Notes: a model not told the origin generated them from the sequence alone. A stretch of DNA of 63,994 bases, filler included, from Candidatus Hydrogenedentota bacterium (GCA_040752395.1; 8 parts of 8 records of this genome joined end to end with filler, not necessarily neighbours in it), one strand, 5' to 3'; counted from the first letter of the whole stretch, positions 28,827 through 62,490 are shown. Program-made: numbers and translations.

Positions 28827-29040
28827 GAGGCACAAAGGCACAAAGTATGAAAAAGATAGGAGTTAGGAGTTCGTAATAATAGATCTGAGCTCCGAGCTCC
28901 GAACTTTTTCGAAGGAGAAGGCTCCAGCCGGCTGTAGTCCGTAGCCTGTAGCCTGTCCTGATACCTCTCACTTCTTCCGTTATCTTGCTTCTTGCTTCTA
29001 CTTGATATTATTATAGTTACAATGTTTTTCAGAGGAGGGG
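28827..29040 (+). repeat. modular repeat array E-G-B-A-C
   Basis: Direct matches to the other arrays. Confidence 0.93.
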
Positions 29041-29055
29041 GCAATAATAAGTTAT

Positions 29056-29238
29056 ATGAATGATAGAAATATTAAAAGAGCAGGTATTTTATTTATAGTT
29101 TTATTATTCATTGCAACAATTCTGGGATATAAAAAGATGAATGTTTTATTTACATTGTTGAGTTTATTAATACTGATTAATATCGTCTTTCTTATTAGAG
29201 AATTGATAAAATACATTTATGAGGTATTTAAAAGATGA
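29056..29238 (+). CDS. small 2-TM protein coupled to trkH
   Basis: Hydrophobic 60-aa ORF with an ATGA overlap to trkH. Confidence 0.55.
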   Translation: MNDRNIKRAGILFIVLLFIATILGYKKMNVLFTLLSLLILINIVFLIRELIKYIYEVFKR

Positions 29239-30581
29239 TGAGGCGGATTCTTGGTGACCCTCCATTAATGATAATATTAAGTTTTGCTATAGCGATATGT
29301 GCTGGCACGTTAATTTTGAAACTACCATTTGCAACACATAATGGCATAAGTCTAATTGATGCATTGTTTACCATTACCTCTGCAACGTGTGTAACTGGTT
29401 TGATTGTAGTGGATACTGCTACTTATTTTACGATATGGGGTAAAATAATTATTTTGATATTTATTCAGATAGGTGGATTAGGTATACTTACATTATCAAC
29501 TATGTTTATGGGTATATTAAGTGGTAGAATCGGGATAAGTGGTCGAGGCTTTATTAGCGAGAGTTTAACACAGGATTTTGTCCTGGATTTTTATAAATTT
29601 TTGAAAAGATTAATCTATTTTGTAACAGGTATAGAAGTGTTAGGAGCGGTACTATTATTTATATTTTTTATAAGAACCGAAGATTTTATAAAAAGTATCT
29701 GGCTTTCTATATTTCATTCAATATCAGCTTTTTGCAATGCTGGTTTTTCTCTTTTCTCAGATAGTCTTGAACCTTTCCGGGGGAGCATACATTTAAATAT
29801 AGTAATTATGGTTCTCATTATATGTGGGGGGCTTGGGTTCGTTGTAATAAATGAGTTGTATGAGATCTTAAAAACAAAGAAAATCCAACTCTCATTTCAT
29901 AGCAAAGTTGTATTATCAACAACTTTATGTTTGATATTGTTTGGTGCTTGTTTTATTTTTTTTATCGAACAGAATTATTCTTTTTTTAATTTTACTTTTA
30001 AGGAAAAGATATTAAGTTCTTTTTTTCAAAGCGTGACAGCAAGAACAACTGGTTTTAATACTGTGCCTGTATATCTATTAAAAGAAGCCACAGCGCTAAT
30101 CCTTATAACATTGATGTTTATTGGTGGTTCGCCTGGTTCTACTGCGGGCGGGATAAAAACAACTTCGTTTGCAATATTTTTTTCTTTGATAATAAGCAGG
30201 ATCAGGGGAAGACCAAGACCAGAATTATTAAGACGAACTGTCTCAAAACAAACTGTTGAAAGAGTATTTACCTTAATACTTATCTCTTTGTTAATTTTAA
30301 CTCTTTGTATTTTTATCCTCCTGCTTTCAGAGATCGAGACAGTATCTCACAAGACTAATTCCAACTTTTTTTTAAGTGTTATATTTGAGGCATTCAGTGC
30401 TTTTGGTACTGTTGGTTTATCGCTCGGCATAACTCAGTACTTAACAAATCTTGGTAAATTGGTTATAATTATATTAATGTTTATAGGAAGGACAGGTCCA
30501 TTAACTTTGGCTATCTTAATGATGCAGGGTAAAGAAGAGCTTGAGTTTCAATATCCTGAGGAAGAGATAATGATTGGCTGA
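29235..30581 (+). CDS. trkH: Trk/Ktr potassium uptake membrane subunit (KtrB/TrkH)
   Basis: SATCVTGL, SAFCNAGF, RTTGFN, SAFGTVGLS selectivity-filter motifs. Confidence 0.93.
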   Translation: MMRRILGDPPLMIILSFAIAICAGTLILKLPFATHNGISLIDALFTITSATCVTGLIVVDTATYFTIWGKIIILIFIQIGGLGILTLSTMFMGILSGRIGISGRGFISESLTQDFVLDFYKFLKRLIYFVTGIEVLGAVLLFIFFIRTEDFIKSIWLSIFHSISAFCNAGFSLFSDSLEPFRGSIHLNIVIMVLIICGGLGFVVINELYEILKTKKIQLSFHSKVVLSTTLCLILFGACFIFFIEQNYSFFNFTFKEKILSSFFQSVTARTTGFNTVPVYLLKEATALILITLMFIGGSPGSTAGGIKTTSFAIFFSLIISRIRGRPRPELLRRTVSKQTVERVFTLILISLLILTLCIFILLLSEIETVSHKTNSNFFLSVIFEAFSAFGTVGLSLGITQYLTNLGKLVIIILMFIGRTGPLTLAILMMQGKEELEFQYPEEEIMIG

Positions 30582-30582
30582 T

Positions 30583-30675
30583 GTCCTGATACTTCTCACT
30601 TCTTCCGTTATCTTGCTTCTTGCCTCTTGCTTCTACTTGATATTATTAGAGTTACAATGTTTTTCAGGGGAGGAT
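30583..30675 (+). repeat. modular repeat array A-C inside the trk operon
   Basis: Near-identical to 28955-29038. Confidence 0.93.
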
Positions 30676-30682
30676 ATTTTCG

Positions 30683-31339
30683 ATGTCTGAATTTGTTGTT
30701 ATAGGGTTATCGACGTTCGGTGATGTGCTTGCACGAACACTTTATAAACTCAACCAGGAGGTACTTGTTATTGATAGAAACAAAGAAAAAATACAAGAAA
30801 TTAAAGATTCTGTTACAAAGGCGGTAGTAGCTGACGCTACAGAAAAAAAAGTGCTTGAAAAGTTTATAAAAGGTAGTGAGGCAACTATTATTGTCTCGCT
30901 TGGCGATAACATAGAAAAAAATGTTATGATAACCTATTATCTAAAAGAGATGGGGATAAAAAGGATTTATGTAAAGGCTACAAGTCTTGAACAAGGTAAA
31001 TTACTGAGAACAATAGGCGCAACTGACGTTATATATCCTGAACGAGATATGGCTGTTCGTACAGCTGAAACACTGGCGAACCCCAATCTACTCGAGAGTT
31101 TACCGCTTACCAATGAGTATGCGATAGTTGAGTTTGCCGTACCATCGCAGTTTATTGGCAAATCACTAATGGAATTAAAACTACGTAATGAATATGGTAT
31201 ATATGTTCTTGCGGTAAAAGAGGTTGTACCTGAAAAGATAATCGTTATGCCGCCACCTGATTATGTATTTAAAGATTCTGATGTACTCTTTATTCTTGGT
31301 AAATTGAGTGATATTGACAGATTAAGGCCCTCAACATAA
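30683..31339 (+). CDS. trkA: Trk/Ktr RCK regulatory subunit (KtrA/TrkA)
   Basis: VIGLSTFG Rossmann variant, IGATDVIYPERDMA, TrkA-C domain. Confidence 0.92.
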   Translation: MSEFVVIGLSTFGDVLARTLYKLNQEVLVIDRNKEKIQEIKDSVTKAVVADATEKKVLEKFIKGSEATIIVSLGDNIEKNVMITYYLKEMGIKRIYVKATSLEQGKLLRTIGATDVIYPERDMAVRTAETLANPNLLESLPLTNEYAIVEFAVPSQFIGKSLMELKLRNEYGIYVLAVKEVVPEKIIVMPPPDYVFKDSDVLFILGKLSDIDRLRPST

Positions 31340-31368
31340 GTAGGGTGCGGTTCGCGAACCGGTCCTGC
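31340..31368. repeat. GTAG-type REP-like palindrome between convergent genes
   Basis: GTAGGGTG-CGGTTCGCGAACCG-GTCCTGC, with a perfect 14-bp palindromic core. Confidence 0.6.
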
Positions 31369-31372
31369 TGGT

Positions 31373-32065
31373 TTATTCAAAAGCCCTTTTGCGTGGAAGA
31401 TTTATATCGATCCCCCATAAATCTTCATACCGTTCTTTATCGCGCTCCTCAGAAGTAAAATGACGTTTCTTCCCGGGGCTTTTTGTTTCCACCTGCCATC
31501 TATCAATAGCTTCTTCTTCTTCTTCTTTTGTCCATTCTTCTTTTTCTTCTTCCATATTTAAAGACCTATCTTCCGGGTTCTCGACCTCTACACGCCATCT
31601 ATCTATAGCCCCTCGGTCTTTATACCCTAGCCTTTTACCCATTCTCATCCTTTTCATACGTTCGCTTTTTAGTACTATAAATTTAGCTATCTGTTTTGTA
31701 GTAAGTATTTTACTTGCTTCATCATAAAGCTCATCATCTATAGACTGCATCTTATTTTTTTCATCTTTTATTTTATCGATTATATCCTGGAGTTCATTAT
31801 CAGGTGCTTCATTTTTCAGAGCTTCTTTAAGTGAGTCAGTCAGTTGTGCTAAGTCTTTTATAATCTTTTTGCGTTTGTTTTCGCTATCCTTGATTAACGA
31901 CGATATTTTCTCTTTTTGCTCATCAGTGAGTTCTAATCTTTCAGCGATTCTATCAAGCATTTTTTCTCTAAATTTAGACTCACCCTCTTTTTTGTTCTTA
32001 GAATACATAAAAGAGGGTACAAATAAAATACCTGAAACAACTAATAAAATAACAAGTTTACGCAT
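31373..32065 (-). CDS. Spy/CpxP-like periplasmic protein
   Basis: Signal peptide, LELTDEQKEKI and ILTTKQ (LTxxQ) motifs. Confidence 0.75.
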   Translation of the reverse strand: MRKLVILLVVSGILFVPSFMYSKNKKEGESKFREKMLDRIAERLELTDEQKEKISSLIKDSENKRKKIIKDLAQLTDSLKEALKNEAPDNELQDIIDKIKDEKNKMQSIDDELYDEASKILTTKQIAKFIVLKSERMKRMRMGKRLGYKDRGAIDRWRVEVENPEDRSLNMEEEKEEWTKEEEEEAIDRWQVETKSPGKKRHFTSEERDKERYEDLWGIDINLPRKRAFE

Positions 32066-32071
32066 AAACTA

Positions 32072-32350
32072 CCTCCTCTCCTCTGAAAAACATTGTAACT
32101 CTAATAATATCAAGTAGAAGCAAGATAACGGAAGAAGTGAGAGGTATCAGGACAGGCTACAGGCTACGGACTACAGCCGGTTGGAGCCAAAAGCCCGGAG
32201 CCGAAAGCCAACATCCTTTAAAAAAATCAGAATGCAAAATGCGGAAATCTGTAGTCAACAGCCAGAATTTAGAACGCAATAACCCAATAACCCAATAACC
32301 CAATAACCCAATAGTGTAGAGCGCAAAAGCGCTCATGTTGACTCCTCTGA
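32072..32350 (-). repeat. modular repeat array I-H-(unique)-B-A-C
   Basis: (AATAACCC)4 plus full B, A and C copies. Confidence 0.93.
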
Positions 32351-32457
32351 CTACAGCTCAAATATATTTCTTGAATAATTATATAATTTTTTAGTATGTT
32401 AATGCAATAAAAAATGGTATCTTTCACAATCATTTTTTTAAAGACAAATAAAATTCA

Positions 32458-32883
32458 TTAAAACAATTTAAAACATTTCATAATACTTGAAATAAAGCGT
32501 GGATAGATATTAAGAAATATTTTTATGTTTTTAAATACTATCTCATCGCGGTATTCACCGTATTCGTGAACAAGCCTGTTTCTTAATCCCGACGTTTTTG
32601 CAAGTCGTATTGCTAATTTATTAGAAATTAATCTTGAAGTTCCGAGTTTTTGGAAAACTTCATAATATGTTTCTGGGGGATTAATGTTTTTAAGCAGAAG
32701 CACCTCGCTTGATATGTCTGCACCAACTTCTACTATAAGCTGTAATAGTCTTTCCACTGCGCGCCTGGTCTTTCTTTCTTTGGAATACGTAATCCATTTT
32801 ATTTCTTTAAGTTCTTTGAGTTCGGAGATATAATCTGATAAAAGCTGTATCCTTCTTAAAAGTATAGAAGTCTCTGCATTCAT
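32458..32883 (-). CDS. hepT: HEPN (DUF86/HepT) ribonuclease toxin
   Basis: AVERLLQ, LRNRLVHEY (RX4HXY). Confidence 0.9.
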   Translation of the reverse strand: MNAETSILLRRIQLLSDYISELKELKEIKWITYSKERKTRRAVERLLQLIVEVGADISSEVLLLKNINPPETYYEVFQKLGTSRLISNKLAIRLAKTSGLRNRLVHEYGEYRDEIVFKNIKIFLNIYPRFISSIMKCFKLF

Positions 32884-32885
32884 AA

Positions 32886-33311
32886 TTATACTACCTGACT
32901 AAGTTTATTCTTAATAAAGTCTTCGTGTCTTTTGCGGAATTTTTTTGTATCCCTGTAATTACGCAATAATCTCAACCTAAAATCATGCCATTCTGAGGCA
33001 TTCCTGGCATACAAACATATTCCGTCCCTTGAAATAAAATAACCAAGTAATGGTGAAATATGATTCAGTATAACTATATCTAATGAAAATTCAGGCAATC
33101 TTTTAGTAAAATTTAAAAGTAAAATTTCTTCTTGTTTCAAAGACGGTTTATTATTAAATAATATACCAATATCTATATCAGATAATTGACCATATGTTGA
33201 TTTTACTGCCGACCCAAATAAAACGATTAACTTAATTGGTAAGTATTTAGCTGCTTTAACTATCCTATGTTTTAATCTTTCTATATCGATACCATGCTTT
33301 TTTTTTCTCAT
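32886..33311 (-). CDS. mntA: minimal nucleotidyltransferase antitoxin
   Basis: LFGSAVKSTYGQLSDIDIG (GSX10DXD). Start moved to ATG 33311 because the longer ORF runs through promoter and repeat DNA. Confidence 0.88.
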   Translation of the reverse strand: MRKKKHGIDIERLKHRIVKAAKYLPIKLIVLFGSAVKSTYGQLSDIDIGILFNNKPSLKQEEILLLNFTKRLPEFSLDIVILNHISPLLGYFISRDGICLYARNASEWHDFRLRLLRNYRDTKKFRKRHEDFIKNKLSQVV

Positions 33312-33376: not shown

Positions 33377-33408
33377 TAATTATATAATTTTCTGGTATGT
33401 TAATGCAA
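33377..33408 (-). promoter_or_regulatory. sigma70 promoter of mntA-hepT (second copy at about 32376-32407)
   Basis: TTGCAT-N18-TATAAT on the - strand, within a ~55-bp direct repeat. Confidence 0.6.
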
Positions 33409-33427
33409 TAAAAAAAGTGTATAAAAG

Positions 33428-33825
33428 ATAGAAGACAGAAGACAGGAGCGACGTATGAAAGAGGCATATACTGCTCCCCTGAAACGTGAGACACTTTAAA
33501 GGGGAGTACTCATGAGCGCGGGTTGCGCTCTACACTATTGGGTTCTTGGGTTCTTGGGTTATTGCGTTTTTGCGCTCTACATAAAGGATGAAAAAGATAG
33601 GAGTTAGGAGTTCGTAATAATAGATCCGAGCTCCGAACTCCGAACTTTGAAGAAGTAGTGAGGGTCACAAGACCCGTAGTAGACTGAGGGAATATCAAGA
33701 AGCAAGATAACGGAAAAAAAGACAACGAAAAAGAAAGGTTGAGGTTGAGGCTAAGGTTGAGGAACGGAAAGAAAGACAACGAAAGGCACAAAGGCACAAA
33801 GGCACAAAGTGACAGAGGCACAAAG
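33428..33825 (+). repeat. largest modular repeat array: F-I-H-I-G-inverted A half-(AGGTTG)n-E
   Basis: Matches 20271-20310, 56768-56850 and 28846-28906; five GGCACAAA-type octamers. Confidence 0.9.
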
Positions 33826-34030
33826 TTTTTTCTATCAGCTCCGTACAGAACGAGTAATACGAACAGTTAAAGAAGAAACTATCTGGATATCAGATTGGGA
33901 GACATATGAGGAAGCGGTTTTGGGTATTTCAGAAGGGATAGAGTTATATAACGGGGATCATCTTCATTTATCATTAGGGTATTTAAGTGCAGTTGAGTTT
34001 GAGCAATTAATTTATGAGAGGTGTGAAGAG
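33826..34030 (+). pseudogene. IS3-family transposase, integrase-core C-terminal remnant
   Basis: ERVIRTVKEE..YN..H.SLGYLSAVEFE resembles the E-helix and HSSLGY motif of IS3 DDE transposases; the 5' part is missing. Confidence 0.75.
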
Positions 34031-37042: not shown

Positions 37043-37045
37043 AAT

Positions 37046-43271: not shown

Positions 43272-44585
43272 CTATACTACTCCTGTTTTCAAGTTTTCGT
43301 ATTCTAATGCATTGTTAATAGCATTAGCAAGTAGAGTGGATGCGAGTCGTGCTATGAGTTTATCCTTTTTCAAGAAGGGCTTATTATTAATTTTATTCCG
43401 AATCATAAAGACGCCAATGACCCTGCCTTTCGCAACTAATGCTGCAATGAGTGCTACCCCTGGTTGCGGGTCATCAACAATAGTTGTGGTCCCGAATTCA
43501 GCAGTTAAACCTATATCGCTCTGTCCAACTTTAACTCTGATTGTTGAGAGTTCACTTTCAGAGATAACACCATTTTCATCATACCCGATTTTACCCACAA
43601 GTTCGTTGGTAGCCGAGTCAAGCAAAAAGAGGGTCATAATTCTTACTTTCATCAACCTCACAATCGAACCCACAGCCATCTGTAGAACCTCACTTAAATC
43701 AAGTGTTGCGCCGATACGTTTAGCAATATCAAGCAGGTTAAAAAATTCCTGACCTGTTAATGGTTGTGGTCCTTCTTCACCGCTTTCCCCTGTTTCAACT
43801 TCTTTTTTCATTTTATCTATTTCGTGCTTGTATTTTCTCTCAAGTTCTAATTTAATATCTGATATAATTTCTTCGGTACCATCATTAATATTTTTACTTA
43901 TAAAAAGGCTTGCAATAATCACAGAAGATATAAGAACAATCGAGATTAAAAGTATAAAATTTCGAAGCTGAACAAAATCATAAAAGCTATCAACAGAGAA
44001 CCCCACCCTGATGGCCCCCCATACAATAGAGTAATTATTAATATTTATAGGAACTATTACATCAAGTACATCTCTGCCGCTACTTTTCAATCTTCGTTCA
44101 GTGCGTGTAAGCTGAGGCGGTATCTCTTGATAATTTGTTATCTCACCATCAGCGGTTCTTAATTTATGCAAACCTGCCTGCTGGTCGGCAAGTTCTGTTT
44201 TAACTCTTATTTTCTTGTAAACTTTTTGTTCGATCTCATCAACTTCAGCCCTTGTAATTTTACCAGAAAACTCTTCAGCAAGCGGAACACCATCACCATC
44301 AAGTATATATACATACACTATCTCGCCCTGCTCGCCTATATCACCTATTGTATTAGCCACAGCATCTCTTAAGGAACTTATATCGTTCTCTGCGATTTGT
44401 TTAGCATTGGATAATGCCATAATTTTGGGTATAAGTTCTGTTCTTCTTATAATCTCTTGTTCAAACTTTTCTTTATCAATATAATAAACAATAAAAACGA
44501 TTATAATAGCAAGTATAACATTCAAAAGAGAGATGCCAATCACTTTAAAGCCGATGTTTAAATACTTTAATCTCTCCTCAGCCAC
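43272..44585 (-). CDS. 2-TM sensor-like protein with a C-terminal GAF domain
   Basis: TM - Cache-like periplasmic region - TM, then IGATLDLSEVL..IGVFMIRNK..AINNALEYE GAF pattern. Confidence 0.75.
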   Translation of the reverse strand: MAEERLKYLNIGFKVIGISLLNVILAIIIVFIVYYIDKEKFEQEIIRRTELIPKIMALSNAKQIAENDISSLRDAVANTIGDIGEQGEIVYVYILDGDGVPLAEEFSGKITRAEVDEIEQKVYKKIRVKTELADQQAGLHKLRTADGEITNYQEIPPQLTRTERRLKSSGRDVLDVIVPININNYSIVWGAIRVGFSVDSFYDFVQLRNFILLISIVLISSVIIASLFISKNINDGTEEIISDIKLELERKYKHEIDKMKKEVETGESGEEGPQPLTGQEFFNLLDIAKRIGATLDLSEVLQMAVGSIVRLMKVRIMTLFLLDSATNELVGKIGYDENGVISESELSTIRVKVGQSDIGLTAEFGTTTIVDDPQPGVALIAALVAKGRVIGVFMIRNKINNKPFLKKDKLIARLASTLLANAINNALEYENLKTGVV

Positions 44586-44592
44586 TATATCA

Positions 44593-44847
44593 CTCCTCTG
44601 AAAAACGCTGTAACTCTAATAAAATCAAATAGAAGCAAGAAGCAAGATAACGGAAGAAGTGAGAGGTATCAGGACGGGCTACAGGCTACAGGCTACGGAC
44701 TACAGCCGGCTGGAGCCAAAAGCCCGGAGCCTGCTGAAAAGTCTCGAGTCTTGAGTCTTGAGTCTTGTTTTGACTCACGACTCTTTTCATACTTTGTGCC
44801 TCTGTGCCTCTGTGCCTCTGTGCCTTTCCTTTGAATCTTTCATCCTT
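44593..44847 (-). repeat. modular repeat array (TGAAAGAT)-E-D-B-A-C
   Basis: Collinear with 62229-62425 apart from unit copy numbers. Confidence 0.94.
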
Positions 44848-46815
44848 TTAATCCACAGTTATTTTGTCTTTAATTTTATTATACAACTCTTCGTCAATAC
44901 CCGGGACATTCAGTAAACCTTCGTTCTTTTTAAAACTTCCTTTTGAATCACGATAAGCTACAATCATTCTCGCCTGATATTCGCTAATACCCAATGTTTT
45001 CATCAGTTCTGTATACTCTGCTTTGTTTATATTAACTTTAACCTCTTCCTTAATTTTTTCCTCTTTTACTACTCTTTCTTCCTTTTGTGGTTTCACTTTT
45101 ACCTCAATCTTTGGTTCTTCTATGTATAAGTACTCAGTTAATTCAGGATGCGATTCTTTATCAATACCTGGTACATTATATACATCCTCAACTTTTTTAT
45201 ACAATCCATATTCATCTCTGTAAGCGATTATAAGCATAGCCTCGAATTTAGTAAGTCCTGGTATTGTTTCTAATTCTTTTAACTGGGCTGTGTTCAAATT
45301 GACCTTTGTAATAGTTTCTTTTTTTTCAACAGGCTTAATGACTTCTATCTTTTCTTTTGGTTTTTCAATTTTTCGTTCCTCTGCAGGTATTTTTACTTTT
45401 TCTTTTTCTTCGGGTTTTACTTGCGGGATTCTTTCTTTTGGAACTTTAGTTTCGACCACATAGAGATAAGGTCTTGCTAATCTGTATATATCTTCATTAA
45501 CTCCAGGGACAAGCAGTAAATCCTCAAGCTGTCTAAAATTACCGTATTTTTCTCTATAAGCTACTATAAGTTTAGCAATAGCTTCATCAATACCAGGTAT
45601 TTTTTTAAGTTCTTCGAAATTTGCAGTATTCAGGTTTAAGAATATTTTTTCTTTTTCTATACCAATCGGCTGGTCAGGACCATTAAAGTCAACAACATAA
45701 TCAGATAATAAAGGATATTTAGCTTTTTCGTCTTCCATCTGGGCAACATAAGCTTCTGGCCGAATTATTCTCGGAGTTATAAAAATAAGAGTTTCATTAT
45801 TGACTCGATTAGTAGTTTTTGTTTTAAATAAATTACCAAGTACAGGGATATCACCCAGAACCGGGACCTTGCTTACTGTTACATCTTCTGACCCCTGAAT
45901 CAATCCGCCAATTATTAAAGTATAACCATCCTGAATCAAGACTTTAGTATTTGCGCTGCTTGAGCTTACTGGCACCTGCCCGGTTGACGTAGGTTTGCCA
46001 GCAGGTATGTCAATCTGTGGGTTCACCTCAAGTTCAATAATATTGTCATCACCTACATGAGGTGTAACTGTAAGCGTTATAGGTACTCGCTGAGTACTTG
46101 GGATCTGGTAAGGTTGACCCGTAACCGGGTCTTTTTCAATTGTATATGTTGGGAACTCCTGTCCGATATCAATAGTAGCCTCTTTATTATCAAGTACTAC
46201 AACCTTTGGACTTGCGATGACATTCACAGAGGTGTATTGAGCTAATGCATTGAGTAAGCCCTGTAAATCGCCAACAGAGCTCAAAGGGTTATTGGGGTCA
46301 GCAAAATTTACCACAGCAAACCTTAATGTTGCGCCAACATTTGCAGTAGAACCAATATTCATTTTTATATATTCATCTGTCCCGAATCTCAGGTTCTCAT
46401 TAATAAATTTTAAGCTCGGTATATACTGCCACTCAATACCAAGAGACTCAGCATTTGATAATTGAACACTTGCAACAACCGCTTCAATTAATACCTGTGG
46501 GATACGGCAATCAAGGTGTTCTAACACTTCGTCTACTTTGTTTATTACTTCAGCTGATGCTGTAATTATAAGCGAATTTGTTCTCTCATCAACCTCAAGT
46601 GTTCCGCCGTTATCAGTTAAAAACGAGGAGATAGGAGTATTTATATCAGCTGGCTGAACAAACTTAAGTTTCCGAACGACAGTTACCCTCTTAGTATCAA
46701 GTTCTTTAACTACATCAGCTATTTTAGTGTATATCTTTTCATCATCGATAAATGCTACGGCATTCTGCTGGTCTAATGCAAAAAAATTGATTCCCGGGAA
46801 TAAATCTGTAAGGGT
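44848..46815 (-). CDS. secretin (GspD/PilQ family) with three C-terminal ComEA-like helix-hairpin-helix domains (5' truncated)
   Basis: Frame is open to the contig edge (..VDERTNSLII.. secretin N domain); QVLIEA, IIGGLI, KVPVLGDIPVLGNLFK, IFITPRII; then 3x (L/V)N(L/I)NxAxxxEL..A..I(V/I)AYR..G.(F/Y)....L..VPG. Confidence 0.88.
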   Translation of the reverse strand, partial: TLTDLFPGINFFALDQQNAVAFIDDEKIYTKIADVVKELDTKRVTVVRKLKFVQPADINTPISSFLTDNGGTLEVDERTNSLIITASAEVINKVDEVLEHLDCRIPQVLIEAVVASVQLSNAESLGIEWQYIPSLKFINENLRFGTDEYIKMNIGSTANVGATLRFAVVNFADPNNPLSSVGDLQGLLNALAQYTSVNVIASPKVVVLDNKEATIDIGQEFPTYTIEKDPVTGQPYQIPSTQRVPITLTVTPHVGDDNIIELEVNPQIDIPAGKPTSTGQVPVSSSSANTKVLIQDGYTLIIGGLIQGSEDVTVSKVPVLGDIPVLGNLFKTKTTNRVNNETLIFITPRIIRPEAYVAQMEDEKAKYPLLSDYVVDFNGPDQPIGIEKEKIFLNLNTANFEELKKIPGIDEAIAKLIVAYREKYGNFRQLEDLLLVPGVNEDIYRLARPYLYVVETKVPKERIPQVKPEEKEKVKIPAEERKIEKPKEKIEVIKPVEKKETITKVNLNTAQLKELETIPGLTKFEAMLIIAYRDEYGLYKKVEDVYNVPGIDKESHPELTEYLYIEEPKIEVKVKPQKEERVVKEEKIKEEVKVNINKAEYTELMKTLGISEYQARMIVAYRDSKGSFKKNEGLLNVPGIDEELYNKIKDKITVD

Positions 46816-53188: not shown

Positions 53189-53409
53189 NNNNNNNNNNNN
53201 NNNNNNNNNNNNNNNNNNNNNNNNNNNNNNNNTTAATTAATTAANNNNNNNNNNNNNNNNNNNNNNNNNNNNNNNNNNNNNNNNNNNNTTATGATGTCAG
53301 GTGATAAAACAAATTTGTCTGATTTTAAAATAATATCAGATGCTTATTCATTGAATTGGGCTTTATTCAAAGCATTAAATACCAACGATTTTGTTACTCT
53401 ACAATACTT

Positions 53410-53675
53410 CTAACTTCTGACCCCTGATACTTCTTACTTCGTGAAATTATTAGAGTTACAACGTTTTTCGAAGGAGTCAACACGAGCGTGGGTTGCGCTC
53501 TAGACTATTGCGTTCTTGCGCTCTACACTATGGGGTTCTTGGGTTCTTGGGTTATTGCGTTATTGCGTTTTTGCGCTCTACACAACGTATGAAAAACCAG
53601 ATGTTTGTTTATCTTGCTTCTTGCTTCTTGCTTCTATTTGATATTATTAGAGTTACAACGTTTTTCAGAGGAGGT
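53410..53675 (+). repeat. modular repeat array C-I-I-H-I-A-C
   Basis: Two C copies (53446-53477, 53638-53674), three TTGCGCTCTA units and GGGTTCTT octamers. Confidence 0.92.
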
Positions 53676-53685
53676 TTACACGGCT

Positions 53686-55971
53686 ATGGCTATGCAGCAT
53701 AAAACAAAAAAAGATTCGAAACTTAATCTACTGCCATTATTTGAAGAACAATTATCAAAAACAAGAGATGAGATTTTCTTTGAACCCGAACTTTCAGAGA
53801 ACGCTCAAATAGTACTTCAAAAAAGGTATTTCAAAAAGGATGAGGAAGGCAAAATAATCGAAGACGCTAAAGCTATGTTTCTCAGGGTAGCAAAAGATAT
53901 CGCTAAAGCTGAAGAAAAATATGGCTCTTTAGAGAATGTTCGAAAATATACAGAGATATTTTATCAAATGATGGCTAATCTTGATTTTTTACCTAACTCA
54001 CCAACACTTATGAATGCTGGTAAACCTTTGCAGCAGCTCTCTGCGTGTTTTGTGCTATCAGTTGGCGATTCAATGGAAGAGATATTCGACGCTGTAAAAT
54101 ATACAGCGTTGATACATAAATCAGGTGGGGGGACAGGATTTTCTTTTTGTAAATTAAGACCAAAGGGTAGTGTCGTATCTTCAACAAAAGGGATAGCATC
54201 AGGTCCTGTCTCATTTATGCGTGTGTTTGATGCTGCTACAGAAACTATTAAACAGGGCGGGACACGCCGGGGCGCAAATATGGGGGTTTTAAAAGTTGAC
54301 CATCCTGATATACTTGAATTTATTGATTGTAAAAAAGATCAGAAACATCTCAACAATTTTAATATATCAGTAGCTATCACTGACGAATTTATGCAGGCTC
54401 TGTATGAAGACAGGGAGTATGGTTTATTAGACCCGACATCAGGTAAAATAACAGGACGTTTATCAGCTCATTATGTTTTTAATAGAATAATTGAGAATGC
54501 TCATAGAAATGGCGAACCAGGTATAATTTTTATTGACCGTATCAATGCTTTTAATCCAACACCTGAGATAGGTATGATCCAGGCAACTAATCCCTGCGGG
54601 GAACAGCCTCTCTTGCCTTATGAATCCTGCAACCTTGGCTCAATCAACCTTTCAAATTTTGTAAAAAATAATAAAGAGATAGATTTCCAAAGACTTGGAG
54701 ATGTAGTTGGATATGGTGTCAGGTTTCTTGATAATGTAATAGACAGAAATCACTATCCTTTGAAACAGATTGAACTCCAAACTTTAGGTAATAGAAAGAT
54801 CGGGCTCGGTGTTATGGGGTTTGCTGATATGTTGATAAAACTCGGGATACCATATAATAGTGAAAAAGCTGTTGAAATAGCCGGCAAGGTAATGAAATTT
54901 ATTAATGAAAAAACTACCAAATATTCAGAACAGTTAGGGATTGAAAGAGGTAATTTCCCTAATCATTATAAAAGTATTTATAAAGATAGACACCCAATGA
55001 GGAATGCAACTGTAACTACAATTGCACCTACTGGAACCATAAGTATTATTGCAGGTGTATCAAGTGGCATAGAACCGTTATTTGCTTTAAGTTTTTATAG
55101 AAACGTGCTTGATGGCAATAAACTAATTGAAGTCCATCCACTCTTTAAAAAAATACTCGAACAAAACGGATTATATAACAAAGAATTGATTAACAAGGTT
55201 GCTGAAAAAGGGAGTATCAAGGAGATAAAAGAAATACCGGATGATATAAAAAGAGTTTTTGTAACAGCACATGATATAGAACCGAAATGGCATATTATAA
55301 TGCAGGCTGAGTTCCAGAAATATACAGCCAATGCTGTTTCTAAAACAGTGAACTTACATAATAACTCAACAAAAGATGATGTTAAAGAGATATATTTACT
55401 TGCTTATAAACTTGGCTGTAAAGGGGTAACGGTTTATCGTGATGGCAGTCGTGAGGAACAGGTTCTTGTGAAAACAAAAGAAGGGAAGACTCGTGAGGTA
55501 AAACATCCAAGAAAACGACCCGTTATAACAGAGGGTAAGACAGTAAGAATCAATACTGGCTGTGGTAAATTATATGTTACAATAAATGAAGATGAGTTTG
55601 GCGTATGTGAGGTTTTTAGTACTATGGGTAAGGCAGGTGGTTGTACTGCAAGCCAGTGCGAAGCTATCTCAAGACTTATCTCAGTCTCTTTAAGAGGAGG
55701 GATGGATATTAATGAGATTATCACGCATCTAAAGGGCATATCCTGTCCTAATCCAGGCTGGGATGCTAAAGGCCAGATTTTATCCTGTGCTGATGCCATA
55801 GCAACCTCGCTTGAGTTATATCTTGAATCACGAGGTAAAAACGGCACAAGACCCGCTTTACCACAGAAGATCGTGATAACAGCAGGCGGGTGTCCATCGT
55901 GCGGCGGCACAATGGTAAATATGGAAGGTTGTGCGACCTGCCGTGTCTGCGGATTCTCAAAGTGTTCGTAA
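53686..55971 (+). CDS. nrdJ: class II (adenosylcobalamin-dependent) ribonucleotide reductase with TSCPD domain
   Basis: [43 protein letters not shown]-terminal CPSC..EGCATC..CGFSKC. Start moved to ATG 53686. Confidence 0.94.
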
Positions 55972-55983
55972 GGATTATAACCT

Positions 55984-56568: not shown

Positions 56569-56767
56569 AAAACGGAAAAACAGGAACGGTTCTAGTTTTT
56601 CCTGTTTTTTGATAATAATTTTAGCGTGTTTTGGAATAAAATTTATATAAAGTGTGGCAGCTTTTGTGTTCCAAGTTCAGGTTTTTCAGAGACCTCTACA
56701 ATAAATCTTGACAAAAAGAAGGATACCTTTTAATAAATCTCGACCTTTTATTAATAAAAGAAGTCGC

Positions 56768-57077
56768 CATGAGCGCGTTTGCGCTCTACACTATTGGGTT
56801 CTTGGGTTATTGCGTTTTTGGGTTTTTGCGCTCTACACAAAGTATGAAAAACTAAAGATGATATGAAAAGAGTCGTGAGTCGCAAGTCGTGAGTCAAAAC
56901 AGGACTCGAGACTCAAGACTCAAGACTTTTCAGCAGGCTTTGGGCTTTTGGCTCCAGCCGGCTGTAGTCTGTAGCCTGTACCCCGAATTATTAGAGTTAC
57001 AGCGTTTTTCAGAGGATAGGAGTTAGGAGTTCGTAATAATAGCTCCGAGCTCCGAACTTCGAACTTTTTCGAAGGGG
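56768..57077 (+). repeat. modular repeat array I-H-I-J-D-B-C-G
   Basis: D-B is the reverse complement of 62275-62395; G matches 28856-28915. Confidence 0.94.
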
Positions 57078-57083
57078 TCGATT

Positions 57084-57956
57084 ATGAAATTTGAAGATGA
57101 TGATTTAAAAAAGATTATAGAAATAGAAGATAGCATACTTGAAAAACTTGGTTCCTGCGAAAAAGTTGATTCTGGATATGAGGGATTAAATGATGAGGAG
57201 CGTAAAAAATTAGCAGCTCTTTCGAGTAGTAAGGAATTGTACTCTACAGTTATACAATCGATCCTTGGGATTAAGCTTACTGAAGAGACAGCGCGTAATG
57301 ACTGGAACAATATTTTGGTCCATAAATATTTTCTCTCCCAGAAGGTCGGGCACGATGTAGGGATTATTCTTGCTGTGCTTGACTATTATAAAAACATAAA
57401 AAAAGAGGATAGAGAATTCAGGCTTATTGACAGAAAGACACTGGAATCAACGTATCAGAACCTGATCACAGATAGTTTAACAGGGCTTTATAATCACAGA
57501 TATTTTCACGAACAACTTCAGAGATTTATACAATCTCATAGTAAAACCAGCTCAACATTATCTCTTTTCTTTTTTGATATAGATGATTTTAAAAATTTTA
57601 ATGATACAAATGGTCATCTTGCAGGAGATATATTATTGGCTGAGATCGCTCGAATAATTTATGAGAATATCAGAATGGATTTTGATTTACCCTGTAGATA
57701 TGGTGGTGAAGAGTTTGCTATAATTATGCCTTATACTGATAAAAAGAATGCATTACAATTAGCTGAGAGGACGAGGGAAAACATAGCATCGTATTCGTTT
57801 CCTGGCAGAGAATATCAACCCTTAAAAATTGTTTCTATAAGCGGTGGGATCTCGGAATTTCCGTCTGAAGCAAACAATAGAAAAGATTTAATAAATCTTG
57901 CTGATAAAAGATTATACCGTGCGAAGAAGAAGGGAAAAAACAGAATAGTTACATGA
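57084..57956 (+). CDS. diguanylate cyclase
   Basis: DSLTGLYN, DIDDFKNFND..GHLAGD, RYGGEEF. Confidence 0.92.
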   Translation: MKFEDDDLKKIIEIEDSILEKLGSCEKVDSGYEGLNDEERKKLAALSSSKELYSTVIQSILGIKLTEETARNDWNNILVHKYFLSQKVGHDVGIILAVLDYYKNIKKEDREFRLIDRKTLESTYQNLITDSLTGLYNHRYFHEQLQRFIQSHSKTSSTLSLFFFDIDDFKNFNDTNGHLAGDILLAEIARIIYENIRMDFDLPCRYGGEEFAIIMPYTDKKNALQLAERTRENIASYSFPGREYQPLKIVSISGGISEFPSEANNRKDLINLADKRLYRAKKKGKNRIVT

Positions 57957-58248: not shown

Positions 58249-58284
58249 AAAAGTGATATGAAATCAGTTTAGAGTGATGATTAT

Positions 58285-59130
58285 ATGGATGATGGGAAAA
58301 ATAAGGTTGAATTACTAAAAGAATATTTCAAAAAAAGAGACGATATTGTAATGGCTTTTTTATTCGGTTCAAGAACAAAAAATAGTAGTCATAGCCAGTC
58401 TGACTGGGACATAGCAATATACCTGAAACCTGATAAACAGTACGTTGAGATAGAAGAACAAGACCGAGCGTATGAACAAGAAGATGTTATCTGGAATGAT
58501 TGTATAAAAATACTTAATACTGATAATGTTGATTTAATCATTTTAAACCGTGCACCGGTAAATATTTCTGATACTGCTATCAGGGGGAAAACTTTGATTA
58601 TTAAAGACCATACCTTATATTTATTGTTTATGCTGGCTGTTACACGTGAAGCTGAAGATTATAGAAAATTTGTAAACGAATACTATAGTATCAGTCAGCG
58701 TTCTACATCTTTTTCGTCTGCAGACAGGGTCATACTACAAAAAAGTATCAGTTTTGTCGAGGAGCAGATGACACTTTACCCATATTTTAATAATCTAACT
58801 CTCAAAGAATACACCGCCAATATTCACAAAAGGAATGATGTAGAACGCTGGGTTGAGAATATCGTTAATGCAGTTATCGATATGTCAAAGATTATACTTG
58901 CAAGCCGGCATAAAATTATACCTGATACTTACAGAGAAGTTATAGTACGAGCTTTAGTGATATTAAAACTATCTGAGAATTATATAAGTAAATTCGAAAA
59001 GTGGATAAAACTCAGAAATATACTTGCTCATGAATATCTGGATATAAGATGGGGAAGGATTGAAGACTTTATAAAGACAAGCGAACCCGTGGTCAATGAC
59101 TTTTTATCTTCCCTCAAAACCTATTTATAA
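58285..59130 (+). CDS. fused MntA-like nucleotidyltransferase and HepT-like (DUF86) RNase
   Basis: LFGSRTKNSSHSQSDWDIA and LRNILAHEY in one 281-aa ORF. Confidence 0.88.
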   Translation: MDDGKNKVELLKEYFKKRDDIVMAFLFGSRTKNSSHSQSDWDIAIYLKPDKQYVEIEEQDRAYEQEDVIWNDCIKILNTDNVDLIILNRAPVNISDTAIRGKTLIIKDHTLYLLFMLAVTREAEDYRKFVNEYYSISQRSTSFSSADRVILQKSISFVEEQMTLYPYFNNLTLKEYTANIHKRNDVERWVENIVNAVIDMSKIILASRHKIIPDTYREVIVRALVILKLSENYISKFEKWIKLRNILAHEYLDIRWGRIEDFIKTSEPVVNDFLSSLKTYL

Positions 59131-59257
59131 GTGCGGTTCCCAACATTTAATAAATAAACATTTATACGAGTCTGTTGCAGAGGTTAGTTTTTTGGTTTTC
59201 TTAGCGGATTTATCTATACACCAATTGTTATCGTGCGATACTTTACTTCCTTCAAGC

Positions 59258-59459
59258 TTAGTCTTCTAATTCAGCTTTAACTGATTGATGATACTTAATC
59301 CTTGCTTTCTTTTTAGCCTGCTCGAACCACTGATTAAATATCTCATTTTGTTTTTTTTCAAAGAGGTCATTATAGAGTTCGGCCCGGAATCTCTCAAATT
59401 CCTCTTCGTCAAAAGGTTTACGTTTTATAAGTTGAAATATATGGTAACCGTTCTGAGCG
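59258..59459 (-). CDS. C-terminus of a probable PpiD/SurA-type parvulin chaperone (5' truncated)
   Basis: Manual translation ..NGYHIFQLIKRKPF..KQNEIFNQWFEQAKKKARIKYHQSVKAELED*. Confidence 0.6.
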
Positions 59460-59652
59460 NNNNNNNNNNNNNNNNNNNNNNNNNNNNNNNNNNNNNNNNN
59501 NNNTTAATTAATTAANNNNNNNNNNNNNNNNNNNNNNNNNNNNNNNNNNNNNNNNNNNNTTTGTTTTCGGTTATAGGTTATCTGATACTTCTCACTTCTT
59601 ATTTCTTCACCACCTATAACTGAAAGATTACTCTTAATATTAATATATATCG

Positions 59653-60837
59653 TCAAATTTTATTTATTTCCTTTAAATTAATTATGCTTAAATTTTTCAG
59701 ATAGTACGAAATAATGTGAGCAACAAATTCGTGGCCTTGTTCATTAAAATGTGCGTCGTATTTGAAATAAAGGGTTCTATCAGTCTTTTTAAAATAATCT
59801 TTAAGATTTATAAAATTAATATTGTTTTCTGTAAGAAATGGTTTTAAGATATTTATCGGTTTATCAAGGTCAAGATGCGCGGTCTGGAGATATGGGTTAA
59901 TCTCAATGGTCTCTTTTAATCTGTCATTGTATAACTCTATCTGGTCAGGTATAGATACAAAAATAAAAGAAGCTTTATTTTCTATTGTTAAATCCCTTAT
60001 TTTTAATATCAGTTGTTTAGTAATCTGCCAGGCCTCATCCCAGCCCTGTTCATAATCCTTATAATATACACGATTGTTTAAGATGCCTTTATATAATCTC
60101 TTTTTTGCTCTGAAACTATATAAAAGTTTATATTTTATATCGTAGATAAAATTTCTTATATAAGATTTTCGCCATAGACTCTTTGTTAAATACGTTTGTT
60201 TCCGCTGCCTTATTACTCTATCATAATCATACGGAACCAATTTCAGTTCATACCCTCCTCCTTTACTATCAACAAGTTTCCATAAAGGCCGGTTTTTCGA
60301 GCCCTGGAGAAGATATTCATAGTTCAAAAAATAGGAATTATCCCAGACATCGTTGTTGGCAAAAAAACAAAGTATAACAATATCAGGCTTTAATATATCA
60401 ATATAATCTTTTAATATCAGATACTGCTGTCCAGTACCGTGACCCTGGATCGCAAGATTAAAACATTCGTATACGTCTGTATCGTTATTTAATAGTTTTT
60501 CAAGGATCCTGGGAAAGGTTTTATCAACAGATACCTGCGCCCCTAAAGTAAAAGAATCACCTAAAAATATTATTCTCTTTTTACCCTCTGACTTAAAAGT
60601 AAACTCCCTTTCTCTGAAACCAGAAGAATTTGAGCTTATTTTTGTTTTAAAACCATAACCTGTATAAATACTTTCACGCGATGGTGTATGATACGAGCCA
60701 TAAACAGGATGCGGTATCCAGATATCTTTGTATTCGGGTGAATACTCCAAAAAAAATAATCGTAATATAAACTCAATTATGAAAATGCTGCAAATTATTG
60801 AGATAAAAAAAACAGAAGATAATTTTAAAACCCTCAT
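59653..60837 (-). CDS. membrane-anchored SGNH/GDSL hydrolase (AlgJ/AlgX-like)
   Basis: NSSGFRE, LGDSFTLG, ANND, DAHFNEQGH. Confidence 0.85.
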   Translation of the reverse strand: MRVLKLSSVFFISIICSIFIIEFILRLFFLEYSPEYKDIWIPHPVYGSYHTPSRESIYTGYGFKTKISSNSSGFREREFTFKSEGKKRIIFLGDSFTLGAQVSVDKTFPRILEKLLNNDTDVYECFNLAIQGHGTGQQYLILKDYIDILKPDIVILCFFANNDVWDNSYFLNYEYLLQGSKNRPLWKLVDSKGGGYELKLVPYDYDRVIRQRKQTYLTKSLWRKSYIRNFIYDIKYKLLYSFRAKKRLYKGILNNRVYYKDYEQGWDEAWQITKQLILKIRDLTIENKASFIFVSIPDQIELYNDRLKETIEINPYLQTAHLDLDKPINILKPFLTENNINFINLKDYFKKTDRTLYFKYDAHFNEQGHEFVAHIISYYLKNLSIINLKEINKI

Positions 60838-62195
60838 AATTTGTTTAGCGCAGCTACAGCATCACGAATTGAGGTAACAGGAAAGAGTTTAATATCAGTA
60901 AAATTCAATTTCTGGGATATCTCAGGTATGATTATTCTTTTAAAACCGTTTCTTGTAGCTTCTTTAATCCTTGATTCGATGCCGATCACACCCCGAACCT
61001 CACCTGTAAGACTGACCTCACCTATAAAACATAAATCACCAGCTAAACTTATTTCTTTATAACTTGAGTATAATGCGAAACAGGTGGCTAAATCACAAGC
61101 TGTATCATTCAATCTTATTCCGCCACTCACATTTATATAAATGTCCTGACCCGATAACCTTATACCTGCTTTTTTCTCAATTACAGCGATACAAATAGCC
61201 ATCCTGTTATAATCTATGCCTGTAGATAGTCTTCTTGGTTGAGGAAATGGTGAATAACATACAAGGCCTTCTATCTCGACAAGCAATGGTCTTGTGCCTT
61301 CAAGTGTTACAGCGGTCGCAACCCCCGGGCTTTTTGTAAGGTTTTTTGAGATAAATATTTGCGATGGGTTTTTTATCTCAATTAAACCTCTGCCTGTCAT
61401 CTCAAATACGCCTATCTCATCAGTTGAACCAAATCTATTCTTTACAGCTCTAAGTATCCGTATCATACCCTTTGTTTCGCCCTCAAAATAAAGAACAGTA
61501 TCAACCATATGTTCAAGTACCCGTGGTCCTGCAATGACCCCTTCTTTTGTAACATGACCTATAATAAAAGTCGGGATACCCATACCTTTAGATATTTTTA
61601 AAAATCTGGCTGCACATTCTCTTACCTGTATCAGTGTCCCCGGAACTGTGTTAATCTCTGGTATGACCACTGTCTGGATAGAATCTACGATAATAATATC
61701 AGGTTTTAATTCCTGTAATTCTGTTTCAATACTCTCGATATTATTTTCAGTAAAAACAATCACGTTTTGTGATGTTACATTTAATCTTTCAGCTCTTAAT
61801 TTAATCTGGGATTGCGATTCTTCGCCTGAGACATACAACACCTTTTTCCCTGATTTTGCGATTGCATCGGTCATCTGAAGCAGGAGTGTAGATTTACCGA
61901 TGCCTGGTTCACCACCTATCAATACCAGACTTCCTTCCACAATGCCGCCACCAAGTACTCTATCAAGCTCGTTTATACCTGTTTTTATTCGATGGATATT
62001 ATCAATATTTATTTTATTAATAGGGAGTGGTCTGGCTAAATTTAAATTCAAGCTGAACCCCTGTCTTTCTGTTCCTTTTTTTGGTATCTCTTCTTTTAAG
62101 GTATCCCAGTTTTTACATTCTGGGCATCTGCCAAGATAACTTAATGTAGTATAACCGCATTCAATACAAACATATCTTTTTTTAGTCTTAGTCAT
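60834..62195 (-). CDS. radA: DNA repair protein RadA/Sms
   Basis: CIECG..CPEC, GEPGIGKST, KNRFG. Start moved to ATG 62195. Confidence 0.96.
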   Translation of the reverse strand: MTKTKKRYVCIECGYTTLSYLGRCPECKNWDTLKEEIPKKGTERQGFSLNLNLARPLPINKINIDNIHRIKTGINELDRVLGGGIVEGSLVLIGGEPGIGKSTLLLQMTDAIAKSGKKVLYVSGEESQSQIKLRAERLNVTSQNVIVFTENNIESIETELQELKPDIIIVDSIQTVVIPEINTVPGTLIQVRECAARFLKISKGMGIPTFIIGHVTKEGVIAGPRVLEHMVDTVLYFEGETKGMIRILRAVKNRFGSTDEIGVFEMTGRGLIEIKNPSQIFISKNLTKSPGVATAVTLEGTRPLLVEIEGLVCYSPFPQPRRLSTGIDYNRMAICIAVIEKKAGIRLSGQDIYINVSGGIRLNDTACDLATCFALYSSYKEISLAGDLCFIGEVSLTGEVRGVIGIESRIKEATRNGFKRIIIPEISQKLNFTDIKLFPVTSIRDAVAALNKL

Positions 62196-62228
62196 AGCCG
62201 CTTCGCTCCATTGCAAATTGCTTTATTT

Positions 62229-62490
62229 AGAAGCAAGATAACGGAAGAAGTGAGAGATATCAGGACAGGCTACAGGCTACGGACTACAGCCGGCTGGAGC
62301 CAAAAGCCAAAAGCCTGCTGAAAAGTCTTGAGTCTTGAGTCTCGAGTCCTGTTTTGACTCACGACTTGCGACTTGTGACTCACGACTCTTTTCATACTTT
62401 GTGCCTCTGTGCCTTTGTGCCTTTCTCTGTGGCTCTGTGCCTCTTTTCCTCCTCTTTAAAGTGTCTCACGTTTCAGGGGAGCAGTATATC
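62229..62490 (-). repeat. modular repeat array F-E-D-B-A
   Basis: Fills the lysA-radA spacer; every module recurs elsewhere. Confidence 0.94.

Follow-up and report, generated by a model that had tools for sequence, protein, structure and literature searches.

Some 23S ribosomal RNA (rRNA) genes are interrupted by intervening sequences (IVSs), which a published report (PMC4990558) describes as selfish, horizontally spread elements with terminal inverted repeats that are cut by RNase III and whose origin and mobility are unknown. In the form that bears an open reading frame (ORF), found in Coxiella burnetii, Leptospira and others, that report places an S23p/PF05635 gene for a four-helix bundle in the loop of a long stem. 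Two CRISPR surveys note the PF05635 gene inside cas loci. Here, a 63,994-base stretch of DNA (the window) is described, which consists of eight contigs, with N spacers between them, from the 349-contig, 2.84-Mb metagenome-assembled genome (MAG) of a Candidatus Hydrogenedentota bacterium. Arrays of short repeat modules lie between its protein genes, and two motifs recur at their joints: the 15-mer CACAAAGTATGAAAA (hub 1) and TTTTTC(AGA/GAA)GGAG (hub 2). With moderate confidence, these arrays are proposed to be ordered stacks of relics of IVS-like, four-helix-bundle (PF05635) cassettes, and the hubs to be the translation landmarks of those cassettes.

As in the ORF-bearing IVSs, five PF05635 genes of this genome lie between arms, three of them with arms of module types found in the arrays (D, H and E). 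The arms are complementary and long stems can form: modules D, B and G fold, and arm types flank PF05635 on contigs C284, C347 and C92. In contrast to the IVSs, the arms are tandem units of 7-8 nt, nearly all copies are without the gene and are strung in ordered arrays, and these arrays are found between protein-coding frames instead of in helices 9, 25 or 45 of an rRNA. No insertion into a 23S rRNA gene was observed, and a search of the window against Rfam at gathering thresholds returned zero families and no rRNA. In the window, no PF05635 ORF occupies the loop of an array or a hub; all five loci are outside it.

Several intergenic repeats of other bacteria were also compared. BOX elements of Streptococcus pneumoniae have the form boxA-(boxB)n-boxC, and the arrays share with them a composite intergenic build, a fixed module order, a variable inner module and inner unit number, and the lack of a transposase of their own. 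They differ from BOX in having more module types, a tandem heptamer or octamer build, a strict aim at the next gene, a ribosome-binding end and a traceable link to a gene cassette. The bacterial interspersed mosaic elements (BIMEs) and repetitive extragenic palindromes (REPs) of enterobacteria are likewise intergenic mosaics of palindromic units and defined linkers; here, in contrast, there is no gene for a REP-associated tyrosine transposase (RAYT), the location is on the 5' side of genes and the arms are tandem units. In the intergenic mosaic elements of Neisseria, blocks are joined at a short recurrent motif, dRS3, which is a recombinase or phage integration target that flanks every block. 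This system is the nearest analogue of the hub idea, but in the present arrays a shared motif is absent from most joints, and the two sides of the hub are strongly linked. Mycobacterial interspersed repetitive units (MIRUs) resemble the arrays in lying inside operons, in being oriented with the gene and in carrying start and stop signals at their ends, and differ from them as single 40-100 bp units in tandem that do not form ordered hairpin arrays. The short tandemly repeated repetitive (STRR) heptamers of cyanobacteria are also intergenic and of several sequence types; to our knowledge, neither hairpin pairing nor module order has been described for them, and the literature search found no link between STRRs and PF05635. 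Finally, when the arrays are compared with miniature inverted-repeat transposable elements (MITEs), inverted arms are present, but the ORF-bearing partner encodes PF05635 and not a known transposase, and D and G show no clear duplication of a target site around them.

A mosaic repeat family and its proposed origin in PF05635 cassettes

The genome assembly is 93.8% complete, and the GC content of the window is ~33%. Words of 14 bases with at least six occurrences cover 8.2% of the genome (1,466 regions, 169 kb in total); 11-mer words were too loose for this purpose, marking 52% of it. Genes were called with a crude longest-ORF caller. The repeats are best explained as a mosaic intergenic family of ~15-20 short, exact-ended modules, which takes up ~6-8% of the genome and is nearly always aimed at the next gene. 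The modules themselves, denoted here by letters, consist of tandem 7-8-nt units.

The module-type arms around the PF05635 loci (Table 1) suggest that D represents a D-armed cassette in its empty form, that E and H are orphan arms, and that hub 1 is the border between arm and start codon in an E-armed subfamily. A complete cassette would comprise a PF05635 gene with an arm of tandem 7-8-nt units on either side, the right arm being complementary to the left. Once the gene was lost, D, B and G would remain as empty hairpins, E and I as orphan left arms and H as an orphan right arm, with short end-pieces as the third kind of remnant. At the border of left arm and gene, hub 1 would then represent the last arm unit, one free base and ATG AAA A, i.e., the start codon and the first lysine codon. 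Hub 2 would mark the other end, where the tail of C or G places a Shine-Dalgarno GGAG 4-10 nt ahead of the next start or of the ATG of module I. Because such landmarks are common to cassettes with unrelated arms, similarity between modules would begin and end there, which would give these joints their hub-like appearance. We infer the same origin for B, G, I, P, C, F and J, and likewise loss rather than gain of the gene and the route by which blocks spread.

Two of the PF05635 genes are decayed. That on C284 is fused straight to the right arm at model position 75 of 106, and that at C92:3632-3760 retains its first codons and its last ~45 residues. Both look like intermediates between a full cassette and an empty hairpin.

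The same border is found in other organisms. When the E unit plus hub, an 18-mer (AGGCACAAAGTATGAAAA), was compared with 185,579 species genomes, 37 stretches matched, mostly as single chance matches, with four in one MAG (G041). At two loci (L006/L125), the exact 18-mer gives the start codon of a 119-aa PF05635 protein (E = 1.6e-39), and reverse-E units follow past the stop. At these and a third, similar locus (L091), all in another phylum, the hub ATG opens the frame MKKTFRDLLVWQKAM... PF05635 genes were present in 58 of 151 genomes sampled. Flanking inverted arms of tandem units accompany 20 of 28 PF05635 loci from 28 other genomes (z of at least 4 against shuffles; a 29th locus was left out because its flanks were too short), and the arm-unit sequences are idiosyncratic among these loci. 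In an unrelated 3.4-Mb genome (G035), the arm heptamer GAACTGA/GAACTGT has 136 pattern matches at no fewer than 28 loci versus three PF05635 genes; several of these loci are inverted pairs 13-85 nt apart, i.e., empty hairpins, and orphan arms occur too. Arms outnumber cassettes likewise, on a smaller scale, in a further genome (G039).

Copies without an ORF were also found elsewhere. MAG G041 holds four exact and six one-mismatch copies of the 18-mer, and in it, as at L016, L031/L063 and L053, the 18-mer is the border of arm and loop in ORF-less palindromes of ~120 nt, whose E and reverse-E unit arms are enclosed by 13-nt terminal inverted repeats. Neither these 13-nt termini nor the loop of the G041-type palindromes is present in the Hydrogenedentota genome. 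The RadA proteins of the two genomes are 49% identical, so the shared element is not a case of simple vertical descent. No PF05635 match above the cut-off was obtained in G041, which indicates that ORF-less copies persist without an intact partner in that assembly. At G041 loci L042-L051, the hub reads GTAGGAAAA in 6 of 10 palindromic E-hub-reverse-E elements, with loss of the ATG, and at two of them (L049, L050) a second shared repeat (..AAAAAAGAGGGAAAAATATGAAACCACAGAGAGCACAGAGGA..) with CACAGAG-type units lies downstream of the palindrome. Searches with the hub 15-mer in 40 other genomes (same domain only), with the 18-mer among viral contigs and with a 23-mer of the B-hairpin core among metagenome contigs gave 0 matches each.

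The hubs as putative translation landmarks

Hub 1 occurs five times exactly in the window and once with a single mismatch (53581, plus strand), where none is expected by chance (100 dinucleotide shuffles); two other sites are further variants of the family (33580, plus; 21256, minus). The whole genome has 74 exact copies, and the family (..CACAnnnN-ATGAAAA) numbers 284. Following an E or I end, ATGAAAA is seen in 212 copies against ~9 point variants, whereas the four bases 5' of it take at least six forms (AAGG 78, AAGT 74, ACGT 47, ATAT 36, AAGC 18, AGGT 14). In the window, the 15-mer is directly preceded by GG of module E at 28839, 44784 and 62389 and by CTA of module I at 56836 and 26837. 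It is continued by AGATAGGAG (G) at 28853 and, in a variant copy, at 33594, by GAGTCG (D) at 44783 and 62388, or by ACTAAAGATG (J) at 56851, and J closes with ATGAAAA ahead of D at 56863. These sites and flanks had been described in an earlier interpretation of the window (the sequence-only reading), and every one of them was confirmed, as were the hub-2 junctions given below.

Two hub-2 sequences, TTTTTCAGAGGA and TTTTTCGAAGGA, have 339 and 70 copies genome-wide, and the end of the former lies a median of 10 nt upstream of a called gene start. The motif forms the 3' end of modules C and G, and a weaker form (CTTTTCAGCAGG) is present in D. A start codon follows 4-10 nt 3' of hub 2 and either belongs to a gene or is the opening ATG of module I. 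Junctions to I are found at 21296, 33507 and 53477, to B at 28918, to G at 57017 and to E at 20311. With 16-29 right contexts, hub 2 appears to branch because the repeat stops and unique genes begin there; its branches to B, G and E are cases of an extra module between the ribosome site and the gene. Both hubs are real and sharp joints, which look like a leftover start codon and a leftover ribosome-binding site and are not proven recombination sites.

Hub 1 ends in GAAAA(A)G, whose reverse complement, C(T)TTTTC, heads hub 2 (e.g., window positions 28846-28853 with 28905-28911), and where both surround a D or G hairpin the stem could grow by 7 bp. A role of the pair as a common stem base was considered and rejected, as the right end is present regardless of the left flank and there is no informative covariation.

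Module order and break-points

Regex tokenising of whole arrays was too brittle, with chains broken at variant copies, and pairwise transitions and BLAST break-points were used instead. Scoring among 16 module anchors gave 1,136 adjacencies, of which the 12 commonest edges make up 945: K>D 177, J>K 139, K>J 110, D>B 104, P>H 89, H>C 70, E>K 64, B>P 51, B>C 47, I>K 45, K>K 25 and J>B 24. In the eight commonest transitions, the junction spacing is exact in 85-100% of cases. The gap is 0 for K>D (175/177), J>K (139/139) and K>J (110/110), and a single spacing holds for P>H (85/89) and H>C (69/70). The canonical order is (F/M/N)-E-K-(J-K)-D-B-(P-H or Q)-C-gene, with a second entry by I-K-J... Variation of the blocks would come from slippage, which changes the unit number, and now and then from the deletion or duplication of DNA between short direct repeats like the TATGAAAA pair around J.

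To map break-points, 540 arrays were compared all against all. The top 5% of covered positions take 55.4% of the 409,864 ends of high-scoring segment pairs, versus 5% if these were uniform, and the break-points gather at ~40 joints. The break-points are therefore strongly clustered. The hubs, however, are not the main or special break-points. H|C is used most (84 arrays), followed by B|P (73), Q|C (62), P|H (58) and B|Q (53), and the hub-1 joints stand mid-list at 27-32 arrays (GAAAAG|AGTCGT 32, AAAAAC|CAGATG 29, ACAAAG|TATGAA 27). By diversity of context, too, the H unit (956 occurrences, 12 x 15) and the E unit (309, 10 x 8) rank above the hub-1 15-mer.

The sequence-only reading had further proposed an assembly grammar in which combinations arise by recombination or template switching at the hub microhomologies. 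Taken further, a polymerase or reverse transcriptase would switch templates, new combinations would be made continually, and the hubs would be active assembly sites. Several observations suit this proposal: at hub 1, either of two unrelated modules (E, I) stands on the left and one of five (D, J, G, T, H) on the right, several left-by-right combinations exist for one hub variant, and the break-points are strongly clustered. In addition, 8-nt direct repeats derived from the hub tail (TATGAAAA...TATGAAAA) bracket J, and exactly that 19-nt unit is missing from the K-D form, so that gain or loss of J at the hub looks, from the sequence, like a microhomology- or repeat-mediated event. On contigs C101, C129, C158 and C254, the B hairpin follows an identical J end (GATATG|TTGGCT..) in either orientation, which suggests in-place inversion via exchange between the inverted arms.

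The neighbours of a hub are linked, however, and do not assort freely. Across exact hub 1, the step E>D occurs 26 times and I>D 0 times (Fisher p = 7e-6). Hub variants co-segregate with their flanks: in the hub family, D follows the AAGT variant behind E only, and the ATAT variant stands behind I in 35 of 36 copies and leads on to J in 32. Joints without a shared motif are used more than the hub joints, and array pairs at different loci are collinear over at least 150 nt in 13,169 cases and over at least 200 nt in 4,384 (median identity ~83%). Taken together, the linkage, the co-segregation and the collinear pairs indicate that combinations are mainly inherited as composite blocks and not re-made at the hubs; the pattern is that of a few composite sub-families, apparently copied as blocks, and not of free assortment at the joint. 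Neither RVT_1 nor a Y1 transposase was found in the assembly, which leaves template switching without a candidate enzyme. As both hubs coincide with translation landmarks (ATG plus AAAA; GGAG), there is also a simpler reason for unrelated modules to share them. Continual assembly at the hubs is thus considered unlikely. Of the proposed grammar, the defined module ends and exact joints stand, mostly within one canonical order inherited as blocks, and of the proposed recombination, the J unit between its repeats is the one event that fits, with the linkage across the hub speaking against it.

A different role for the hubs, about as doubtful, is that of preferred landing sites, one just after the ATGAAAA start and the other at the ribosome-binding tail. 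IVS-type cassettes would then be actively proliferating, now or recently, in a deep-branching lineage, and the arrays would be fossil stacks of serial insertions followed by gene loss. If true, this genome would document, for the first time at genome scale, how IVS-type elements choose their targets and decay.

The junctions could in principle be chimeric paths through repeats in a short-read MAG. In line with this, repeat DNA begins no more than 30 nt from 274 of the 698 contig ends, and N runs are present in some arrays. In contrast, identical junctions recur inside contigs at dozens to more than 100 loci with different unique flanking genes, and assemblies made independently from other organisms also contain the hub with E units. 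An assembler may mis-pair flanks, but it presumably cannot create junction words that the reads do not contain. An assembly artefact is thus very improbable.

Hairpins and orientation toward genes

The mean sense-strand folding energies of D, B and G are -29.0, -29.8 and -22.4 kcal/mol, respectively. Copies with a sense hairpin stabler than its complement prevail over the reverse case for each module (D 135 v 49, B 164 v 66, G 41 v 5), which fits transcribed, RNA-level stems as described for IVS elements in the report cited above (PMC4990558). Where an ORF was called downstream of a D loop, loop and ORF point the same way in 133 cases and in opposite directions in 14. Every module tested is found more often in divergent than in convergent spacers (D 13 v 3, B 18 v 5, I 19 v 4).

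Such features could also mean that the arrays are selected 5' leaders. In that case, the hubs would be RNA signals (a start/stop GT-ATG-A for short leader frames, and a Shine-Dalgarno site) for translational coupling, mRNA processing or stability in the manner of MIRUs, and the likeness to cassettes would be secondary. The co-orientation of the arrays with a nearby downstream start, the stabler sense hairpins and the near-invariance of ATG and AAAA beside varying bases agree with this, as do the ATG of module I 5 nt after GGAG and the stops in all three frames of hub plus J. A selected leader is, however, difficult to reconcile with an array composition that varies freely between unrelated genes, with 8-nt units that shift the reading frame of I as their number changes, or with the zero Rfam matches in the window. 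The arms of D range from 1 to 7 and from 0 to 6 units, and their left and right lengths are unmatched (rho = -0.07, 224 copies), giving no sign of stem selection by arm-length matching. Nor did a sigma-70 pattern scan of one contig reveal an excess (30 sites vs 23.1 +/- 4.7 in shuffles), with zero sense-strand sites inside the two arrays of that contig. A primarily functional origin is accordingly judged improbable.

The hairpin units with mosaic linkers, in hundreds of intergenic copies, also recall REP/BIME-type palindromes spread by a RAYT (IS200/IS605-like) transposase. Searches for PF01797 (Y1_Tnp) gave 0 matches in the genome, with the control matching in 6 of 14 known genomes. The position of the arrays is biased to the 5' sides of genes and not to convergent 3' ends, and the arms are tandem heptamers or octamers in place of one conserved palindrome. 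Spread by such an enzyme is therefore regarded as highly unlikely.

Evidence weighed against the proposed cassette origin, and implications of that origin

Several observations weigh against the proposal that the arrays are relics of PF05635 cassettes. In this genome, ties to a PF05635 gene exist for just three module types (D, H and E); the tie of I is weak (two units 5' of one gene at a contig end), and B (~233 copies) and G have no ORF-bearing counterpart. By tblastn, no further PF05635 ORF remnants were detected inside the arrays, and J resembles the ORF's first codons to no more than a suggestive degree. E runs have a reverse partner nearby in 6 of 149 cases. Complete reverse-H...H shells are rare (11 matches, ~7 unique), and on these counts a nested-shell model, with reverse-H...H around other modules, was dropped as the general build. 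The uncorrelated arm lengths of D likewise imply that most arrays are not simple nested cassettes. ATGAAAA is the gene start in 2 of the 28 other PF05635 loci, so hub 1 marks one subfamily and not the whole class. The RVT_1 and Y1 searches identified no transposase or reverse transcriptase to explain the spread, and the array interiors rest on a short-contig MAG without read support. Finally, events could have run the other way: the gene may have invaded the loops of older hairpins.

If the arrays do derive from PF05635 cassettes, mosaic intergenic repeats, which are common (BOX, BIME and others) and usually of obscure origin, would here be traceable to an IVS selfish element. This origin would explain why unrelated modules have short joints in common, and it would mean that cassettes break down into empty hairpins and orphan arms, which can become far more numerous than intact copies. 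Hundreds of natural variants would become available for the study of cassette spread and of the effects of long 5' hairpins on genes. For annotators, many 'heptamer repeats' or hairpins ahead of genes may be relics of PF05635 cassettes. A literature search, with subscription journals and supplements excluded, found no paper on tandem-unit-armed PF05635 cassettes outside rRNA or tied to mosaic repeats; the link between cassette and mosaic repeat is new here.

Features of the window and of the cassette loci

Table 1 Hub copies, arrays and hairpins of the window and PF05635 loci of the genome. Positions count from the first base of the window unless a contig is named.
Feature	Position	Strand	Context
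Hub 1, exact	28839..28853	+	E (GGCACAAAG units) > hub > G hairpin
Hub 1, exact	44784..44798	-	E > hub > D hairpin, no gap
Hub 1, exact	62389..62403	-	E > hub > D hairpin, no gap; spacer ahead of RadA-like gene
Hub 1, exact	56836..56850	+	I > hub > J > second TATGAAAA > D
Hub 1, exact	26837..26851	-	I > hub > J > B hairpin
Hub-1 variant CACAACGTATGAAAA	53581..53595	+	I > hub > T (ACCAGATGTTT) > H
Hub-1 variant CATAAAGGATGAAAA	33580..33594	+	I > hub > G hairpin
Hub-1 variant CACAATATATGAAAA	21256..21270	-	I > hub > J; contig start
Hub-1 tail, second copy (ATATGAAAA)	56861..56869	+	J end, abuts D; 8-nt direct repeat with hub tail 19 nt upstream
Hub 2 (TTTTTCGAAGGAG)	28905..28917	+	G hairpin end, then B hairpin
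Hub 2 (TTTTTCAGAGGAG)	29025..29037	+	Module C end; next long open frame ~20 nt on
Hub 2	53464..53476	+	C end, then I; I opens with ACG instead of ATG
Hub 2	53661..53673	+	C end, then gene start
Hub 2	57005..57016	+	C end, then G hairpin
Hub-2 variant (TTTTTCGAAGGGG)	57065..57077	+	G end; ATG 8 nt downstream
Hub 2	44593..44605	-	C end; GTG start ~9 nt downstream
Hub 2	32078..32090	-	C end, then gene start
Hub 2	26724..26736	-	C end, then small ORF beginning MPDIIVRED, which we take to resemble ribosomal protein S21
Hub 2	21297..21309	-	C end, then I; ATG of I 5 nt past GGAG
Hub-2-like end (TTTTCAGAGGAG)	63750..63761	-	After D-like right arm; 5 nt ahead of ATG, Orn/DAP-decarboxylase-family gene (62500-63744)
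Array I-K-J-K-D-B-Q-C-G > gene	56715..57115	+	Reference for break-point mapping
Array M-E-K-D-B-P-H-C > gene	44560..44882	-	
Array F-E-K-D-B-P-H > RadA-like gene	62169..62529	-	
Array E-K-G-B-P-H-C > gene	28797..29080	+	
Array I-K-J-B-Q-C > gene	26694..26924	-	
Long array N-F-I-K-G	33395..33882	+	Then reverse-H piece and E units
Array P-C-I-K-T-H-C > gene	53393..53754	+	
Array U-C-I-K-J-B	21203..21397	-	Cut by contig start
Array F-E-B-P-H	20241..20530	+	
Two adjoining arrays	32046..32388	-	I units, then B-P-H-C > gene
Short array P-H-C > gene	30552..30707	+	
Array M-E-V	63720..63949	-	Then D-like hairpin and hub-2-like end > gene
D hairpin loop	56892..56907	+	Arms (GAGTCGT)n / (GACTCAA)n around AAAACAG
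D loop	62344-62359	-	
D loop	44760-44775	-	
B hairpin centre (CCAGCCGGCTGTAG)	56954..56967	+	
Further B centres	20364(+), 28924(+), 62284(-), 44700(-), 32171(-), 26781(-)		
G hairpin loop (TCGTAATAATAG)	28871..28882	+	
Further G loops	33612(+), 57031(+)		
PF05635 ORF, 3'-truncated	C284 (24581-24805)		Covers model positions 1-75 of 106; flanked immediately by (GAGTCGT)n and (GACTCAA)n, i.e., D arms
PF05635 ORF, intact	C347		Between reverse-H and H units
PF05635 ORF, decayed	C92:3632-3760		Behind E units; start GGCACAGAG-T-ATGAAAAC (MKTYKDLIVWQKS); reverse-E units after
PF05635 gene	C92:6-260		After two I-like units; contig end
PF05635 gene	C146		Arms of own type

Module F (CTCCCCTGAAACGTGAGACACTTTAAAGGGGAG; window 33440-33506 and, on the minus strand, 62470-62515) is a small hairpin, CTCCCC..GGGGAG, that often follows a stop codon. 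The 8-mer GATGATAT 5' of it also closes J and is a further shared short motif. Runs of at least 14 C occur ~31 times in repeat regions genome-wide and, like the N runs inside some arrays, are possible assembly or scaffolding artefacts. At window positions 3479-3715 and 13149-13295, a separate, palindromic MITE-like element of ~110 nt with inverted ends (AGAACGTGTGAAA ... TTTCACACGTTCT) is found; it is unrelated to the hub modules and has ~25-35 copies genome-wide.

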